Source of the DNA: an uncultured Lachnospiraceae bacterium
Lineage (GTDB): Bacteria; Bacillota; Clostridia; Lachnospirales; Lachnospiraceae
Assembly (NCBI GenBank): GCA_934351835.1
Contig: CAKRJP010000007.1
Coordinates: 1,268-65,267 of the forward strand
Direction of reading: 5' to 3'
Length of the DNA: 64,000 nucleotides
In this document: positions 9,549-16,431 of the stretch, piece by piece
Layout: each line of letters begins with the position of its first letter
Position numbering within the stretch: position 1 is the stretch's first letter
Made by a program: the position numbers and the translations under genes
The notes under the pieces: model-generated
Seen by the model: the letters and a program-made list of their open reading frames with translations, nothing else
What the model was told of the DNA's origin: nothing
Database searches by the model: none

Positions 9549-9593
9549 CAATCTTGCGTTGTGAGAGACACAACTTTTAGTTTAATAAGATGT

Positions 9594-9666
9594 GCGCGAT
9601 TAGCTCAGCTGGCAGAGCACCTGACTCTTAATCAGGGTGTCCAGGGTTCGAACCCCTGATCGCGCA
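9594..9666 (+). tRNA. tRNA-Lys (anticodon CUU)
   Basis: 73 nt fold by hand into a cloverleaf. The acceptor stem is GCGCGAT/ATCGCGC and the D arm is GCTC-AGCTGGCA-GAGC. The anticodon stem is CCTGA/TCAGG with loop CTCTTAA. The T arm is CAGGG-TTCGAAC-CCCTG. Confidence 0.9.
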
Positions 9667-9671
9667 GTATT

Positions 9672-9719
9672 AATCACTGTTTTTGCAGACTTAGGAGCTG
9701 CGGGGGCGGTGATTTTTTT
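9672..9719 (+). terminator. Terminator-like hairpin after tRNA-Lys
   Basis: Arms aatcactg (9672-9679) and cggtgatt (9707-9714) include one G-U pair and are followed by T5. The loop is long and has an inner stem. Confidence 0.5.
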
Positions 9720-9867
9720 GCGTTATAAACTGTTATGCAGACCGGCGGGGTTTGCCAACTTGAAATGATTGTCGACAGGATGTGTAATGCTTTCGGTATA
9801 AAACCTTGTTGTGTAAAGGTAATTCGTGATAAAATGAAAAATATAATCAGCAGGGAGTTTTGAGGCT

Positions 9868-10305
9868 ATGTTAAAAATATTTTATGGAGATATGCCAGAT
9901 GCAGTCTATAATACGGCGGCATATTTTAAATATGATTATGAGGAAGAATGGATTACAGATCCATTTGTAAAAGAAATGATTCTGGATGTGGACAAATCAA
10001 AGGTTATTGATGGAGGAGTGATTGATAGTCCGATATTAGGAAAGATTTCACCGCTTGGATTATCAGGTGGTGTAAAGACTTTGATTTTGGTCAAATTTAA
10101 TACTGAGAAAATTTTTAATGTATCTACTTGCGGAGATAATTGTGCCAAATGGCTTCTTGAAATTGCTAAATATGAAGATCGGACGGTAAATCTTCATCAT
10201 TTAATGGATTTCGGAGATGGGGCGATAGAAGTAGAGATTTTAAATACGGGCGAAGTGGTTCATTCTATGGAAGAACTGGTTTATATTGCCGGGGAATTTG
10301 TTTAG
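9868..10305 (+). CDS. DUF4869-like small protein carrying an ABC-type signature motif
   Basis: 145 aa from an AT-rich gene. The segment SPLGLSGGVKTLILV...IFNVSTCGDN mirrors the ABC/SMC signature (LSGG) followed by a degenerate Walker-B/D-loop strand. No Walker A is present. Confidence 0.7.
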   Translation: MLKIFYGDMPDAVYNTAAYFKYDYEEEWITDPFVKEMILDVDKSKVIDGGVIDSPILGKISPLGLSGGVKTLILVKFNTEKIFNVSTCGDNCAKWLLEIAKYEDRTVNLHHLMDFGDGAIEVEILNTGEVVHSMEELVYIAGEFV

Positions 10306-10321
10306 AGACGGGTGAGTAATA

Positions 10322-11296
10322 ATGAAGGGAAGACATAGCGTGCACGTAAGCACAAAACATCTTCGATATGATTTTGAATTGAAACGAAATATTACGATAA
10401 TTCGTGGAGATAGCGCGACAGGAAAAACTACGTTGGTAGATTTGGTAAGAGTGTATTCTAATGATCCTTCAGGAAGTCCGGTAGAACTTGTCTGTGATAA
10501 GAATTGCTTTGTAGTAGAAGGTGTATTATGGAAACAGCAATTGACCGGGATACAGGATAGTATTGTGTTTATCGATGAGGGAAATGAATTTGTAAAGTCA
10601 AAAGAGTTTGCATCTGTAGTTCAACAGACAGATAATTATTATGTTATAGTAACCAGAGAAAGTTTACCGACATTACCTTATAGTGTTGAGGAAATTTATG
10701 GAATCAGAACTTCTGGAAAATATGCTACTTTAAAACAGAGTTATCATGAATTTTATAGAATCTATGGGGATACCAAATTAAAAACAAATGTAAAACCAGA
10801 AAAAATTATTACAGAGGATAGTAATTCGGGATATCAATTTTTCAAGGAGAGTTGTTCTGATGATATTTTGTGTCAATCGGCAAATGGAAAATCAAATATT
10901 TTTCATTTACTAAAACAGCAAACGAATGAAAAGATATTAGTAATTGCGGATGGAGCAGCTTTTGGACCAGAAGTAGATAGAGTTATACAGTTGTTAAAGG
11001 TGAAAAAGAACGTAATATTGTATTTACCAGAATCATTTGAGTGGCTTATTCTACTGTCTGATATATTAAAGGACAATGAGGTCCGAAAGATTTTAAGTGA
11101 TCCGTCAGAATATATAGAAAGTCAGGAATGTTTTAGCTGGGAACGATATTTTACAAGACTGTTAGTAGAAAAGACACAGGATACATACCTGAGTTATTCT
11201 AAAAAGACGTTAAATAAAGCGTATTTGAATGATAATATAAGAAACGCTATTTTTAAAGAGATAAAGGGAATAATATTTGAGGATATACGAAAATGA
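10322..11296 (+). CDS. Minimal P-loop ATPase fused to a Toprim/DUF4435-like C-terminal domain (OLD/AbiL-like)
   Basis: 324 aa. Walker A is GDSATGKTT and Walker B is IVFIDEG, only about 45 aa later. The C-terminal half has IITEDSNSGYQFF, LVIADGAAFGPE and LPESFEWLIL, which resemble Toprim acidic motifs. Confidence 0.7.
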   Translation: MKGRHSVHVSTKHLRYDFELKRNITIIRGDSATGKTTLVDLVRVYSNDPSGSPVELVCDKNCFVVEGVLWKQQLTGIQDSIVFIDEGNEFVKSKEFASVVQQTDNYYVIVTRESLPTLPYSVEEIYGIRTSGKYATLKQSYHEFYRIYGDTKLKTNVKPEKIITEDSNSGYQFFKESCSDDILCQSANGKSNIFHLLKQQTNEKILVIADGAAFGPEVDRVIQLLKVKKNVILYLPESFEWLILLSDILKDNEVRKILSDPSEYIESQECFSWERYFTRLLVEKTQDTYLSYSKKTLNKAYLNDNIRNAIFKEIKGIIFEDIRK

Positions 11297-11574
11297 ATAT
11301 ATTAAGTGAATTTGGAATGATCGGGTTATATTATCTTTGCATGAATATCATAGCCTTTATTTTATACGGTCTGGACAAGAAATACGCCAGGGAGGGCAGA
11401 TGGAGGATCCCGGAGAAGACATTGCTTGGTATTGCGATGATCGGCGGGGCAGCAGGTGCCTGGATAGGGATGCAGACATTCCGGCATAAGACAAAGCATC
11501 TGTCGTTTCGGGTGTTGGTGCCGGTGTTTATCGTGGTGCATGTGGGGATAATTTATAAATTGATGTGCTTATAG
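11293..11574 (+). CDS. DUF1294 family small membrane protein
   Basis: 93 aa containing YGLDKKYAREGRWRIPEKTLL...GGAAGAWIGMQTFRHKTKH. Its start overlaps the preceding stop (ATGA). Confidence 0.8.
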   Translation: MNILSEFGMIGLYYLCMNIIAFILYGLDKKYAREGRWRIPEKTLLGIAMIGGAAGAWIGMQTFRHKTKHLSFRVLVPVFIVVHVGIIYKLMCL

Positions 11575-11586
11575 TGGGGATTTGAG

Positions 11587-11633
11587 ACCTTCGTTTTTAC
11601 AGTTTTATGAGACCGTAAAAACGAAGGTTTTTT
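11587..11633 (+). terminator. Rho-independent terminator
   Basis: A 14-bp stem, accttcgtttttac / gtaaaaacgaaggt, is followed by ttttt. Confidence 0.8.
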
Positions 11634-11730
11634 GATGTCCCCAAATTAAAAAAATTTTTTTCAAAAATATAAAACCGAACCGATAACTTATTCGTCTTAA
11701 GAGTATAACAAACGAAAAGGAGAAAGAATC

Positions 11731-12183
11731 ATGGAAAAAATGATAAGTAAACAGGAAATAATGACAAGTAGACAAGGCATGGAAAAGTATCTGGAGGATG
11801 TGTATACGATGGAGAAGAATTTGTATACGTTGAGAGAAGAGAAAGATCGTTTAGAGTATAGGATTAAGCATACGGGAGAGGCGAGAATAACACCGGTAAA
11901 AAAACCAAATTTAGGAACTGAAATAGGGGGGCAAATGGGAACATGGGTGTATTATCTTTTTAAATTTATCATAGGTGGGGCAATTGCAGGTTTCCTTTTT
12001 AGCGTATATGTATTTTTTTCCAGCAACAATTTTTGTGTATGGAGATTGACTGGAATAGGAGCTGAATTGGGGTTCGTATTAAGCTTTTTGGTGCCTATAT
12101 ATTATGGTTACAATAGTTATAAACAAAAAGACTACGAATATGAGTACAATAAAAAGGCTTTAGCAAGAGATGTAATGCAATGA
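11731..12183 (+). CDS. Hypothetical membrane protein
   Basis: 150 aa with RBS aaggag. The N-terminus is coiled-coil-like and is followed by 2-3 hydrophobic helices. No family recognised. Confidence 0.55.
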   Translation: MEKMISKQEIMTSRQGMEKYLEDVYTMEKNLYTLREEKDRLEYRIKHTGEARITPVKKPNLGTEIGGQMGTWVYYLFKFIIGGAIAGFLFSVYVFFSSNNFCVWRLTGIGAELGFVLSFLVPIYYGYNSYKQKDYEYEYNKKALARDVMQ

Positions 12184-12986
12184 AATTACAAAAGGGTGAC
12201 TATGCAGATCATGAGTATCAGCTTCAAAAAGAAAACCAGGCAACGTGTACAGAAGATGGTTATAAATACTATAAATGTAGACAATGCGGTGCAGAAAAGA
12301 GTGAAAAGACAGCATCGAAACTGAACCATGATTTCTCTGTATTGATAGAGCATAAAGATGGAACTTGTACGACTAAGAGCTATGATTTGTATAAATGTAC
12401 AAGATGTGATCAGACTCAGAAGATGGAAGGCGATTATGGAGAACACTCATATGTAGAGACATCCGGTAACGATGCGGAAACTACATATACTTGTAGTGTA
12501 TGTGGGGCCACAAAAGTAGAATCTAATGATCGGGAATATACCATAGATCTTGGAAATGGACAAACCACGACGGTAACGGGACACTTTGAACGCTCAATGG
12601 AGGCAGAACTCTTTGATATGTTAAATGAGTATAGAGCGGAAAATGGAGTGGAAGCACTTGAGGAAGGCAGTGAAGCACTTAAAAATGCGGCAGATATCCG
12701 TGGTTATGAAATTGCTTATTCGTTTAGCCATACAAGACCGAATGGTGAAAGAGCACTTACATCATTCAATGCTACAACAAACTGTTGTGCAGAGAATATT
12801 GCCAAATATCAAACTTCAGCAGAACAGGTAATGGAATCGTGGAAGAATTCAGCGGGGCATAATAGTAATATGATTTCGAAATATCCGCAAAAGGTTTCGA
12901 TCAGTGTATTCGCGAGATATGAAAGAACACGTAATGATGGCAGTAATGTATATAGCTATCATTTCGTTCAACTTTTTAGCTGGTAA
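12180..12986 (+). CDS. CAP (SCP/YkwD-like) domain protein with Cys-rich N-terminal repeats
   Basis: 268 aa. There are three CxxxxYxxYKCxxC-like units. The C-terminal CAP block is HTRPNGE...AENIA...SWKNSAGHNSNM. The start overlaps the upstream stop. Confidence 0.75.
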   Translation: MKLQKGDYADHEYQLQKENQATCTEDGYKYYKCRQCGAEKSEKTASKLNHDFSVLIEHKDGTCTTKSYDLYKCTRCDQTQKMEGDYGEHSYVETSGNDAETTYTCSVCGATKVESNDREYTIDLGNGQTTTVTGHFERSMEAELFDMLNEYRAENGVEALEEGSEALKNAADIRGYEIAYSFSHTRPNGERALTSFNATTNCCAENIAKYQTSAEQVMESWKNSAGHNSNMISKYPQKVSISVFARYERTRNDGSNVYSYHFVQLFSW

Positions 12987-13163
12987 CAACTGAAAACTAT
13001 TCAATTTTTTGAACTATTTCTACCCGTTTTCTCAGATTGTTGTAAATTTATCTAAAAATGTATTGAATTAAATGCAATATGATGGTGAAATGGCACAAAT
13101 TATATGATATGATAGTAGAAAAGTGTCGAATGAGACAATCTGAGAGATGTAGTGGGGTTGCAC

Positions 13164-13979
13164 ATGGGAAAAATTATATTTGTGGATGTGGATGGTATTA
13201 TTAAGGACATGGGTGGAGAATTTTCACCATTGTTGATTGAGACTATCCGAAAGGTCAGGGAGAACGGACACGAGATCTGTCTGTGTACAGGAAGAACATA
13301 CCAGCAAATTGATCCGGATATTCTGAATATCGGATGGGATGGAGTGATCGCCAATTCCGGCGGTTATGTAGAGTATAAGGGCGAATGTCTGAAGCACCGT
13401 TTGTTTACTCAGCTGGCATATATTGAGTTTATGAATGACCTGCTGACAGAGCCTTGTGTTGTGGAGATTGAGACAAAGAATGATGTCTATGTTCTCAGGA
13501 AAGATCTGAGGGAATATCTGACGCTCAGAGTACGGCTTTTAGATGGAAAGCGCCGTGCACTGAAGCCACCAAAGAATCCGATTCCGGTAGATACGGTATT
13601 AGATGTGCCGGAAGTGGAGAAACTGATGGTGTTCGGAGATAAGGCGCTTGGAAAAGAAATTCTTGATAAATGGAGTTATGCGTTTTTAGTCAGGGAAGCA
13701 AGGATGTCCTGTGCAGCCTGCTGGGCAGGAGAGATCACGCCGAAGGATATTAATGAGGTCAAAGGAATCCGGAAGGTTTTATATGCGGCGGAGAAGAAGC
13801 AGAAAGATGTTGTAGTGATCGGAGATGGCACGGAGGATCTGGAGATGTTACAATTTGCAGAGACCGGCGTGGCACTTGCGAATGCGAAGGAAGAAGTAAA
13901 AGCAGTTTCTGACTATGTGACTAAGGCAGTTTTGGATGAAGGAATCCGGGAAGCTTTTGTGCATTTAGACCTGATTTAG
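13164..13979 (+). CDS. HAD-IIB (Cof-type) hydrolase
   Basis: Motif I is FVDVDGII and there is a late GDGTEDLEM motif. I prefer ATG 13164 to the upstream GTG 13152. Confidence 0.8.
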   Translation: MGKIIFVDVDGIIKDMGGEFSPLLIETIRKVRENGHEICLCTGRTYQQIDPDILNIGWDGVIANSGGYVEYKGECLKHRLFTQLAYIEFMNDLLTEPCVVEIETKNDVYVLRKDLREYLTLRVRLLDGKRRALKPPKNPIPVDTVLDVPEVEKLMVFGDKALGKEILDKWSYAFLVREARMSCAACWAGEITPKDINEVKGIRKVLYAAEKKQKDVVVIGDGTEDLEMLQFAETGVALANAKEEVKAVSDYVTKAVLDEGIREAFVHLDLI

Positions 13980-14030
13980 AGTGGATTTTTGATGGAACAG
14001 ACTCTGAAATTTGAAGAAAAAAATTTTTAT

Positions 14031-14079
14031 GAGCGCGAAAGCCTTAAAACTGGGCATTCGCGCTCTAAGTACGTTTTTT
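14031..14079 (+). terminator. Terminator-like hairpin
   Basis: Arms gagcgcgaa (14031-14039) and ttcgcgctc (14057-14065). A T-run begins 8 nt later, so the geometry is imperfect. Confidence 0.4.
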
Positions 14080-14241
14080 GTGAAAAATTAACTCTTCCAT
14101 TTTGTCTGGATATGGTGTACTATATTAATTGTCACGGCGCAACATCTTGTGCCTTGAAAAGTTAATAATAACTATATTTAGTATGTCGAGCAACTGATAT
14201 AGCATAATATAAACTAAAATGAAGCAGAAAGAGGGAGAATA

Positions 14242-16431
14242 ATGAGTTTAGACGTTAAGACAAAAGTCATTAAGCGAAACGGCGAGGAGGTACATTTTGA
14301 TCTTCAGAAAATAGAGAATGCGATCAATGCTGCAAATGCGGAAGTTGATAACATTTATAAGATGAATGAGTATCAGATCCGTGCAATTGCAGATGACATT
14401 GCCTTACAGGTGAGCCAGATGCCTCATGCTGTCCATGTGGAGGATATTCAGGATATGGTAGAGACCAGTATCATGGGTATGCGTGGATATGAGGTAGCAC
14501 AGAAGTATGTGCGTTATCGTTATAAGAGAGAGCTTGCACGTAAGTCTAATACAACAGATAATGGGATTCTCGCTCTGATCGATCATATTAACGAAGAGGT
14601 GAATCAGGAGAATTCGAATAAGAATCCAGTGATTAACTCTACACAGCGTGATTACATGGCAGGAGAGGTCAGCAAGGATCTGTCTAAGCGTGTTCTTTTG
14701 CCGGAAGAGATTGTAGAGGCACATGAGGAAGGAATTATTCATTTCCATGATTCCGATTATTTTGCACAGAAGGAGCACAACTGTGATCTGATCAACCTGG
14801 AAGATATGTTACAGAATGGCACGGTCATCAGCGAGACGATGATCGAGAAGCCGCACAGTTTCTTTACCGCATGTAATGTTACCACTCAGATTGTAGCGCA
14901 GGTTGCCAGTAACCAGTACGGTGGACAGTCATTTACACTGTCACATCTTGCACCATTTGTTGATGTCAGCAGAAAGAAGATCCGTAAGCTGGTAATTGAA
15001 GAGCGTCAGGAATGCGGTGAGAGCATGGATGAGGCAATTATCGATAAGATTACAGAGAAGCGTCTGAAAGAAGAAGTTAAGAGTGGTATCCAGACGATCC
15101 AGTATCAGCTGATTACTCTGATGACATGTAATGGACAGGCACCGTTTGTTACGGTATTTATGTATCTGGATGAGGTTCCGGAGGGACAGACCAGAGAAGA
15201 TCTTGCGATGATCATTGAAGAAGTGATGAAGCAGAGAATGCAGGGCGTTAAGAACGAGAAGGGTGTATGGATTACACCGGCATTCCCGAAGCTGATTTAT
15301 GTATTAGATGAAGATAATATTACAGAGGATTCCAAGTACTGGTATCTGACAGAGCTGGCAGCAAAGTGTACTGCTAAGCGTATGGTTCCGGATTATATTT
15401 CTGCGAAGATCATGAAGGAACTGAAGCAGGGCAATGTTTATCCATGTATGGGATGCCGTTCCTTCCTGACTGTAGAGGATTCCCAGAAGAATGCAGACGG
15501 AAGTGCGAAGTTCTACGGAAGATTTAACCAGGGAGTTGTTACAATCAACCTTGTAGATGTAGCTTGCAGTTCAGAGGGCGATATGGACCGTTTCTGGGAG
15601 ATTCTTGAGGAACGCCTGGAGTTATGCCACAGAGCACTTAGATGCCGTCATGAGCGCCTTTTAGGCACAATTTCTGACGTGGCACCGATCCTCTGGCAGT
15701 ATGGTGCACTGGCACGTCTGAAGAAGGGTGAGACGATCGATAAGCTGTTGTTTAACGGTTATTCAACAATCTCACTTGGATATGCAGGACTTTATGAGAT
15801 GTGTGTACGCATGATCGGAAAGACACATACAGATCCTGAGGCAAGACAGTTTGCTCTGGATGTTATGCAGAAGTTGAATGACAAATGTAAAGAATGGAAA
15901 GAAGCAGAGAATATCAGCTATTCTGTTTACGGAACTCCGATGGAGTCTACCACATATAAGTTTGCAAAATGCTTACAGAAGAGATTCGGTATCATCAAAG
16001 GAGTTACAGATAAGAACTATATTACGAACAGCTACCATGTCCATGTCACAGAGCCGATCAATGCTTTTGATAAATTAGAGTTTGAGGCAGATTTCCAGAA
16101 ACTTTCACCGGGTGGTGCGATCAGTTATGTGGAAGTACCGGATATGCAGAATAATATTCCGGCAGTATTGTCAGTTATGCAGTTTATTTACGAGCACATT
16201 ATGTATGCGGAGCTGAATACCAAGAGTGATTACTGTGAAGTGTGCGGATATGATGGGGAGATCCAGATTAAGGAAGACGAATCCGGCAAGCTGATCTGGG
16301 AATGCCCGAACTGCGGTAACAGAGATCAGGATAAGATGTCTGTAGCAAGAAGAACTTGTGGATACATCGGAACGCAGTTCTGGAATCAGGGCAGAACCCA
16401 GGAGATTAAAGACAGAGTATTGCATTTGTAA
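14242..16431 (+). CDS. nrdD: Anaerobic ribonucleoside-triphosphate reductase (class III)
   Basis: 729 aa with an N-terminal ATP-cone. The C-terminal Zn ribbon is CEVCGY...CPNCG and the glycyl-radical motif is RRTCGYIG. Confidence 0.95.
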   Translation: MSLDVKTKVIKRNGEEVHFDLQKIENAINAANAEVDNIYKMNEYQIRAIADDIALQVSQMPHAVHVEDIQDMVETSIMGMRGYEVAQKYVRYRYKRELARKSNTTDNGILALIDHINEEVNQENSNKNPVINSTQRDYMAGEVSKDLSKRVLLPEEIVEAHEEGIIHFHDSDYFAQKEHNCDLINLEDMLQNGTVISETMIEKPHSFFTACNVTTQIVAQVASNQYGGQSFTLSHLAPFVDVSRKKIRKLVIEERQECGESMDEAIIDKITEKRLKEEVKSGIQTIQYQLITLMTCNGQAPFVTVFMYLDEVPEGQTREDLAMIIEEVMKQRMQGVKNEKGVWITPAFPKLIYVLDEDNITEDSKYWYLTELAAKCTAKRMVPDYISAKIMKELKQGNVYPCMGCRSFLTVEDSQKNADGSAKFYGRFNQGVVTINLVDVACSSEGDMDRFWEILEERLELCHRALRCRHERLLGTISDVAPILWQYGALARLKKGETIDKLLFNGYSTISLGYAGLYEMCVRMIGKTHTDPEARQFALDVMQKLNDKCKEWKEAENISYSVYGTPMESTTYKFAKCLQKRFGIIKGVTDKNYITNSYHVHVTEPINAFDKLEFEADFQKLSPGGAISYVEVPDMQNNIPAVLSVMQFIYEHIMYAELNTKSDYCEVCGYDGEIQIKEDESGKLIWECPNCGNRDQDKMSVARRTCGYIGTQFWNQGRTQEIKDRVLHL

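Follow-up and report, generated by a model that had tools for sequence, protein, structure and literature searches.

Nucleases of the OLD type combine an ATP-binding cassette (ABC) ATPase with a Toprim domain, in which metal A is bound by E377, D431 and D433 and metal B by D381, S478 and E480, and the ABC signature motif of OLD proteins is degenerate or absent (PMC7049728). In the HEC-04 system, defence needed both the Walker A lysine and an E/D/D metal site (10.1101/2024.01.29.577857). Here, we describe a pair of adjacent genes from an uncultured Lachnospiraceae bacterium, located in a 64,000-nucleotide (nt) stretch of contig CAKRJP010000007.1 (GenBank assembly GCA_934351835.1, positions 1,268 to 65,267 of the forward strand; hereafter the window, whose numbering is used throughout). 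We read the two genes, with moderate confidence, as a self-contained and horizontally mobile cassette, an uncharacterised and miniaturised relative of the OLD-type (ABC ATPase plus Toprim) nucleases. A preliminary description of this DNA, made from its letters alone, had not recognised the architecture among the named defence systems. This still holds: PADLOC v2 contains no model for gene 1 or gene 2, and no paper on DUF4869 (PF16163), the family of gene 1, or on the pair was found in the published literature.

Results

Distribution of ABC motifs over gene 1 and gene 2

Gene 1 (145 amino acids (aa); 9868–10305, plus strand; defined by its open reading frame (ORF) and Pfam) had been labelled DUF4869-like, and its Pfam match to DUF4869 is strong (E=1.1e-60, 203.6 bits against a cut-off of 28.9); the hidden Markov model of this family was also matched by all 61 aligned gene 1 homologs. 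Gene 2 (324 aa; 10322–11296, plus strand; defined by its ORF, an AlphaFold2 (AF2) model and Foldseek) encodes an ATPase core and a Toprim-like domain. These two ORFs and a third one downstream (gene 3) were recovered on the plus strand at the coordinates of the preliminary description, and every motif it quoted from genes 1 and 2 was present at the position given.

Gene 2 carries a Walker A motif (GDSATGKT, residues 29–36; 10406–10429, plus strand) and a Walker B motif (IVFIDE, residues 81–86; 10562–10579, plus strand), both located from the alignment and the model. In the family, G29, S31, G34 and K35 of Walker A and D85 of Walker B do not vary, and E86 is conserved to at least 90%. From the Walker A lysine to the Walker B aspartate the distance is 50 residues, with no signature subdomain in between, the spacing being too short for one, as had been noticed before. 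In gene 1, alignment and hhalign identified an ABC signature motif, LSGG (residues 65–68; 10060–10071, plus strand), in which, over 61 sequences, S66 and G68 never vary and G67 is conserved to at least 90%. Further on, alignment and model place a strand at the Walker B position and a D-loop-like CGDN within IFNVSTCGDNC (residues 82–92; 10111–10143, plus strand). Here F83, N84, C88, G89, N91, C92 and A93 are invariant in the same sequences, and the strand reads IFN(A/V)S, without Asp or Glu. The two invariant cysteines of CGDNC (residues 88 and 92; 10129–10143) occupy the D-loop position. A P-loop was absent from all 61 gene 1 homologs aligned, and gene 1 has neither the Walker A P-loop nor the Walker B acids that a canonical ABC ATPase requires. 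The missing Walker A, the LSGG and the degenerate Walker B/D-loop strand had all been proposed from the window sequence and recur across the homologs. The signature, D-loop-like and H-loop-like motifs sit on gene 1 and not on gene 2, and this complementary pattern, a P-loop without a signature versus a signature without a P-loop, is conserved family-wide.

Structure models were made with AF2 for each protein singly. The gene 1 model (pLDDT, for predicted local distance difference test, 94; predicted template modelling score (pTM) 0.89) runs from helices through a helix opened by LSGG (67–77), a strand (82–84), CGDN, a helix (90–100) and a strand (105–109) to an (R/H)H that is H-loop-like. This order of motifs and modelled elements fits the second half of an ABC domain. 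Its Foldseek matches in the PDB were nearly all nucleotide-binding domains (NBDs) of ABC transporters, an SMC head (1e69; probability 0.96, TMq 0.48), Rad50, cohesin and Septu PtuA, and these ABC/SMC heads support, at the level of fold, the previously suggested relationship to ABC signature subdomains. When gene 1 was aligned by hhalign with the ABC transporter ATPase encoded in the window, its KEMI...LSGG region fell on the helical subdomain and the LSGGQ of that ATPase, a weak match (E=0.005, probability only 7%); hhalign gave no profile-level link between gene 1 and either P2 Old or an alignment of the OLD family (19 genomes and P2 Old). On the model, gene 1 reads as a putative P-loop-less pseudo-ABC domain that keeps LSGG.

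The gene 2 model (pLDDT 90.4, pTM 0.87) begins with a hairpin (5–10/14–20), a strand (24–27), the P-loop, a helix (35–47), a small hairpin (55–64) and another helix; the N-domain then continues with the Walker B strand (80–84), helices and a strand (106–110) ending in T-R112-E, and closes with two terminal strands. A beta-hairpin ahead of the P-loop is typical of ABC ATPases, and R112 lies at the position expected for the H-loop His. The arrangement fits the ABC core topology, for which the HEC preprint follows Krishnan et al. (10.1101/2024.01.29.577857), except that the signature-bearing insert is missing. Residues ~1–150 thus appear to form a complete minimal ABC core, composed of the hairpin, the P-loop, Walker B and R112 at the H-loop position. 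Pfam gave only weak matches to gene 2, at the P-loop (AAA_23 and AAA_29; residues 16–47), PADLOC gave only P-loop-level matches to LmuB/PtuA (E at least 2e-4; residues 16–47), and NCBIfam and PHROGs added nothing. The N-domain matched the OLD-family alignment in hhalign with E=1.6e-5 and a probability of 79%. In common with OLD proteins, gene 2 has an ABC-type ATPase at its N-terminus that carries both Walker motifs; a full ABC domain on one chain, with Q-loop, helical/dimerisation insert, D-loop and H-loop His, was not found in it.

The preliminary description had proposed that a single ABC head is divided between the two polypeptides. The complementary motifs agree with a division over two chains. 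The core of gene 2 appears complete, however, with an invariant Walker B of its own, so that a dead second ABC subunit is a better reading of gene 1 than the missing half of one head.

Linkage, distribution and selection

Loci were collected from one genome per species, giving at least 587 stretches that encode a gene 2 relative, and the best 80 loci were compared. Gene 1 lay immediately upstream of gene 2 in 79 of these 80, the lone exception beginning at a contig end, and the co-occurrence of DUF4869 with this ATPase, raised as a check on the original proposal, was thereby observed. The spacing was usually 11–20 nt, and the genes sometimes overlapped. Every fetched locus with a gene 2 relative and enough upstream sequence had a gene 1 relative adjoining it, and the linkage held in a pair of only 27–36% identity. 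No natural gene 1–gene 2 fusion was present among the homologs examined. With sequences grouped at 90% identity, the homologs of each protein still make up more than 6,400 clusters, mostly from gut metagenomes and Lachnospiraceae. Only two names are given to them, 'DUF4869 domain-containing protein' and, on the gene 2 side, 'translation initiation factor 2', which is evidently wrong; the latter is carried at NCBI by the gene 2 homologs P0111 and P0113, and neither the family nor the fold searches made here supported it.

The ratio of nonsynonymous to synonymous substitution rates (dN/dS) was 0.02–0.24 for gene 1 and gene 2, and both genes are therefore under strong purifying selection. Their pairwise divergences correlate with r=0.82, a value computed from pairs that are not independent. 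Of 41 related genomes, 7 had the pair (5 among the 34 of high quality); some of these copies had internal stops or split frames, and one genome held several copies. Phylum-wide, DUF4869 was found in 4 of 401 sampled genomes. Among the taxa to which loci with more than 50% identity were assigned are Lachnospiraceae, Faecalibacterium, a melainabacterium, Treponema, Victivallales, Megasphaera and Coriobacteriaceae. The contigs reach 240 kb, and some of the loci come from bins of metagenome-assembled genomes (MAGs) and are possibly contaminated. Because presence is patchy, copies decay, the spread crosses phyla and selection is purifying, this is the profile of an accessory, transferable and functional module.

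Some individual loci deserve mention. In a bin labelled Parabacteroides distasonis (L036), the pair is 94–97% identical at the protein level to that of an Agathobacter MAG (L032), reflecting either bin contamination or very recent cross-phylum transfer. In one viral or proviral contig of IMG/VR (L141, 11691–13289 and 540–3905), the pair is 3 kb from a serine recombinase (phrog_95) and stands between this gene and a large helicase-like gene, which suggests that it is cargo of an integrated element. Internal tandem duplications occur in P0002 (a gene 2 homolog) and P0128 (a gene 1 homolog), and gene 2 N-halves are joined to unrelated C-terminal tails in P0304 and P0311; all four are either artefacts of assembly or copies that have been rearranged or have decayed. 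Pfam did not confirm two suspected features, a PglX-like tail of P0304 and, beside the distant pair in L006, a neighbour resembling HipA.

The surroundings of the pair were also variable. Its flanking genes vary freely in size and family, with 164 Pfam families among 130 immediate neighbours, and in another abundant species the pair is on its own, with a creatininase gene on one side and a GH31 glycosidase gene on the other. Defence genes among the 130 neighbours, given as raw counts, comprised AAA_21/AriA-like genes (four), type I restriction–modification S (three) and methyltransferase (three) genes and mad3 (five).

A small two-gene cassette with a tightly coupled small upstream gene, patchy, mobile, frequently decayed and found as a lone islet among housekeeping genes, might also be a toxin–antitoxin-like or addiction module, in which gene 2 would be an ATP-dependent toxic nuclease restrained by gene 1 and the outcome would be selfish stabilisation rather than defence. 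The toxicity of the related system HEC-04 upon induction (10.1101/2024.01.29.577857) points the same way. However, gene 1 is conserved as much as gene 2 or more and resembles a partner in an ATPase cycle, not a labile antitoxin, and no DNA-binding or autoregulator domain is present. We consider such a module unlikely; many defence systems, moreover, act as toxin–antitoxin-like pairs, and this behaviour would be compatible with an OLD-like defence cassette.

The C-terminal domain of gene 2

The C-terminal part of gene 2 (residues ~158–324) consists of an acidic alpha/beta domain and a helical tail. Model and alignment delimit a Toprim-like core of four strand–helix units at 10808–11047 (plus strand), with strands at residues 161–164, 183–186, 205–208 and 231–234 alternating with helices in the AF2 model. 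The motifs ITEDSNSG (163–170), VIADGAAFG (207–215) and LPESFEWL (235–242) fall in this region, and the residues conserved at the strand ends are E165/D166, G189-K190, D210 and E237-S238-F239-E240. Of these, D210 and E240 are invariant, and E165, D166, E237 and S238 are at least 90% conserved. Counterparts of the OLD glutamate, the first aspartate and SxE are present in gene 2, in the same order and at strand ends.

The top Foldseek matches of gene 2 in the PDB were GajA 8wy5 (E=2.4e-4), Thermus scotoductus OLD 6p74 (1.3e-3), GajA 8sm3 and retron Eco8 9p4j, and the best viral match was an 'ATP-dependent endonuclease' of Catovirus, a giant virus (E=2.1e-4). Single-sequence PDB searches gave nothing useful, profile PDB searches gave P-loop-level or chance matches, and gene 2 had no match at or above the cut-offs of Pfam AAA_15, AAA_21 or PF20469. 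The resemblance to OLD proteins claimed in the preliminary description is seen at the level of fold (GajA and T. scotoductus OLD, TsOLD), and no sequence profile supports a Toprim or DUF4435 identity. As modelled, gene 2 reads as a minimal ABC core apparently fused to a Toprim-like domain.

Several observations weigh against regarding the pair as an OLD-like nuclease with a role in defence. In gene 2, Ala takes the place of the second Asp in the DxD of Toprim domains (A212, at least 90% conserved), and catalysis may therefore be altered or absent. No membership of Toprim, DUF4435 or OLD-like_TOPRIM was obtained at significance (Pfam, E at or below 0.001) for family members or isolated C-domains, among which PF20469 (OLD-like_TOPRIM) gave sub-threshold matches in 2 of 55 isolated C-domains, with a best E of 0.0033. 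The comparison of the C-domain with the OLD Toprim domain in hhalign yielded E=0.15 and no alignment, the profile PDB search with the C-domain found nothing, and the hhalign match of gene 2 to P2 Old was confined to the P-loop, a region that also weakly matches the AAA_22, STAND and AAA_14 models. The Foldseek matches of gene 2 are modest (E ~1e-4, TM-score ~0.2 over two domains), the low TM-score being attributed by us to a two-domain query laid on much larger proteins, and those of gene 1 are weak (best E=5.7e-3). Most of the 130 immediate neighbours are ordinary metabolic or regulatory genes, and only five IMG/VR viral contigs carry the pair. Finally, Cran1, a member of the OLD family, acts in the archaeal cell cycle and not in defence (PMC12796447), and OLD-likeness alone therefore does not imply defence.

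The same evidence would suit a C-domain that is non-catalytic or differently catalytic, with a Rossmann- or receiver-like fold and an accessory role such as DNA maintenance (RecF/RecR- or Cran1-like) or nucleotide sensing. The missing Toprim profile match, the Ala in place of the second Asp, the mostly housekeeping neighbours and the cell-cycle role of an OLD-like protein are all in line with it, and receiver domains and generic P-loop folds were also among the Foldseek matches of gene 2. Yet the strand ends hold the conserved residues E165, D166, D210, E237, S238 and E240, an arrangement known from Toprim sites that depend on metal, and OLD nucleases are the top whole-chain fold matches. A housekeeping role is further opposed by the rarity of the pair in the phylum (4/401 genomes) and among relatives (7/41), by its pseudogenised and multiple copies and by the more than 50% identity retained across phyla. 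A non-nuclease C-domain thus seems improbable to us, and a Toprim-like domain of the OLD kind remains the preferred reading of this part of gene 2.

Gene 3, tRNA-Lys and the variable insert

Gene 3 (93 aa; 11293–11574, plus strand; ORF and Pfam) encodes a DUF1294 membrane protein (Pfam, E=4e-27). The ATGA overlap of gene 2 and gene 3 reported in the preliminary description is real in the window. In other strains of the same species, however, a 112-nt spacer with its own Shine-Dalgarno sequence separates the gene 2 stop from the DUF1294 start (L110, 7420–7540; L111), and the window lost this spacer by a deletion at a GAAA microhomology (11281–11296), which created the overlap. The C-terminal Arg-Lys of gene 2 survived the 112-nt deletion by chance.

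The base composition likewise separates gene 3 from the pair. The guanine-plus-cytosine (GC) content is 0.35 in gene 1 and 0.32 in gene 2, against 0.43–0.45 in the flanks, and it is 0.44 in gene 3, which is host-like and not AT-rich; the AT-rich operon originally described shrinks accordingly to the first two genes. DUF1294 accompanied the pair in none of the 80 loci. Given this count and the spacer in other strains, the module consists of genes 1 and 2, and gene 3 is a neighbour.

Upstream, tRNA-Lys(CTT) lies at 9593–9667. It had been credited with its own promoter and terminator; a terminator-like hairpin with a T-run follows it at 9697–9710, and a consensus scan picked up no separate promoter. 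Flank comparison with four congeneric genomes showed that homology ends at 9719 and restarts at 14242 (nrdD), and these genomes have only ~620 bp between the two points. Positions 9720–14241 are therefore a variable insert of 4.5 kb between tRNA-Lys and nrdD, containing the gene 1–gene 2 pair. DUF1294, an ORF of 150 aa and genes for a CAP-domain protein and a HAD hydrolase are in the insert as well; at other loci the pair is linked to none of them. Neither an attachment-site-like (att-like) repeat of the tRNA-Lys 3' end nor an integrase gene was found in the insert. The adjacency to tRNA-Lys noted in the preliminary description is specific to this species and comes without an att-like repeat.

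Taken at face value, the ATGA overlap and the position of the cluster behind tRNA-Lys would favour an operon of three genes integrated at tRNA-Lys, with the DUF1294 membrane protein as a functional third component. Against this stand the absence of DUF1294 from all 80 loci, the spacer with its own Shine-Dalgarno sequence in same-species strains, the host-like GC content of gene 3, the lack of a direct repeat of the tRNA 3' end and of an integrase gene in the insert, and the unrelated contexts of the pair in other species. For this locus we regard such an operon as highly improbable, and as a general feature it is refuted: gene 3 and tRNA-Lys are incidental neighbours of the pair.

Some other features of the insert may be noted. 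Two of its genes (11731–12986) overlap by 4 nt. The first, the 150-aa ORF, has no family match and a hydrophobic C-terminal half, and the product of the other, a 268-aa protein, combines Cys-rich zinc-ribbon-like repeats with a CAP/YkwD-like domain.

Discussion

Interpretation and proposed mechanism

The complementary motifs, the tight linkage and the fold matches suggest how a two-gene cassette of this kind could work. Gene 1, as a dead ABC subunit, would pair head-to-tail with gene 2 and supply LSGG and the D-loop in trans, giving one composite ATP site per heterodimer. Binding or hydrolysis of ATP at this site may gate the Toprim-like domain, a predicted metal-dependent nuclease that would act through E165/D166, D210 and S238-x-E240. 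P2 Old, Gabija, PARIS and HEC-04 serve as the analogy for the next step: when an invading phage or mobile DNA is sensed, the nuclease would be released and could then cut DNA or tRNA and so protect the population. Judged by this analogy and by its distribution, the pair is probably a defence or genetic-conflict module. We put forward only tentatively the narrower proposal of a new class of OLD-like immune nuclease, in which a live but signature-less ATPase core, fused to the Toprim effector, would be switched by a subunit that has no P-loop and donates the signature, the two forming an obligate single-site ABC heterodimer.

If true, this would make the pair the most reduced ABC switch known and show how far an ABC ATPase switch can shrink and divide across two chains and yet control an effector. 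The pair would also be one of the commonest defence modules still undescribed in gut and rumen anaerobes, the OLD/Gabija/PARIS group of ATP-gated nucleases would gain a member that is very common in the gut microbiome, and functions would be gained for DUF4869 and for a protein mislabelled as 'translation initiation factor 2'. The small size of the two proteins (145 + 324 aa) favours structural and biochemical study.

Comparison with known systems

Asymmetric ABC dimers with one degenerate ATP site (such as EcfA-A' and heterodimeric exporters like BmrCD) and SMC/Rad50 heads provide a parallel for the ABC part, in that an ATP site on one subunit is completed by the signature of its partner, and the fold matches of gene 1 are NBDs of just this kind. 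Both subunits keep a P-loop in these proteins, whereas gene 1 and gene 2 each appear to have lost what the partner provides.

The Class 1 OLD proteins (P2 Old; TsOLD, 6p74) resemble gene 2 in that an ABC-type P-loop ATPase at the N-terminus is joined to an acidic C-terminal domain, which in gene 2 is Toprim-like, and the TsOLD ligands E377, D431 and S478-x-E480 are mirrored in gene 2 by the Glu following strand 1, the Asp following strand 3 and the S-x-E following strand 4 (PMC7049728). Both Class 1 OLD genes and the pair often lie outside defence islands. In contrast, Class 1 OLD proteins have ~520–590 aa compared with 324 aa for gene 2, which has no Q-loop/helical insert and no dimerisation domain, carries Ala as the second residue of DxD and has an obligate P-loop-less DUF4869 partner with a well-conserved LSGG. 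Gabija GajA (Class 2 OLD; 8wy5, 8sm3), the best structural match of gene 2, is an ATPase–Toprim fusion that works with a partner protein, as gene 2 appears to be. It is much larger and has inserts, and its partner GajB is a UvrD-like helicase, not a pseudo-ABC domain; no helicase linked to the pair was found among the neighbours of the compared loci. HEC-04/IbfA-like systems, compared by description, differ in being single genes with a full ABC domain and no DUF4869-type partner.

PARIS (the ABC ATPase AriA and the DUF4435 Toprim protein AriB) and AbiL (AbiLi/AbiLii) are, like the pair, small and mobile systems of two genes; they unite an ABC ATPase with a Toprim effector, as the pair is predicted to do. 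In these systems the split runs between ATPase and nuclease; in gene 1 and gene 2 it runs inside the ABC machinery, with the ATPase core fused to the nuclease-like domain. The combination that defines PARIS and AbiL, a separate full ABC ATPase gene and a separate DUF4435 Toprim gene, is not that of the pair, and the PADLOC models of AriA, AriB and AbiL did not match genes 1 and 2. Lying outside the OLD family proper as well as PARIS and AbiL, the pair is filed here as an OLD-like variant and not as a member of any of them.

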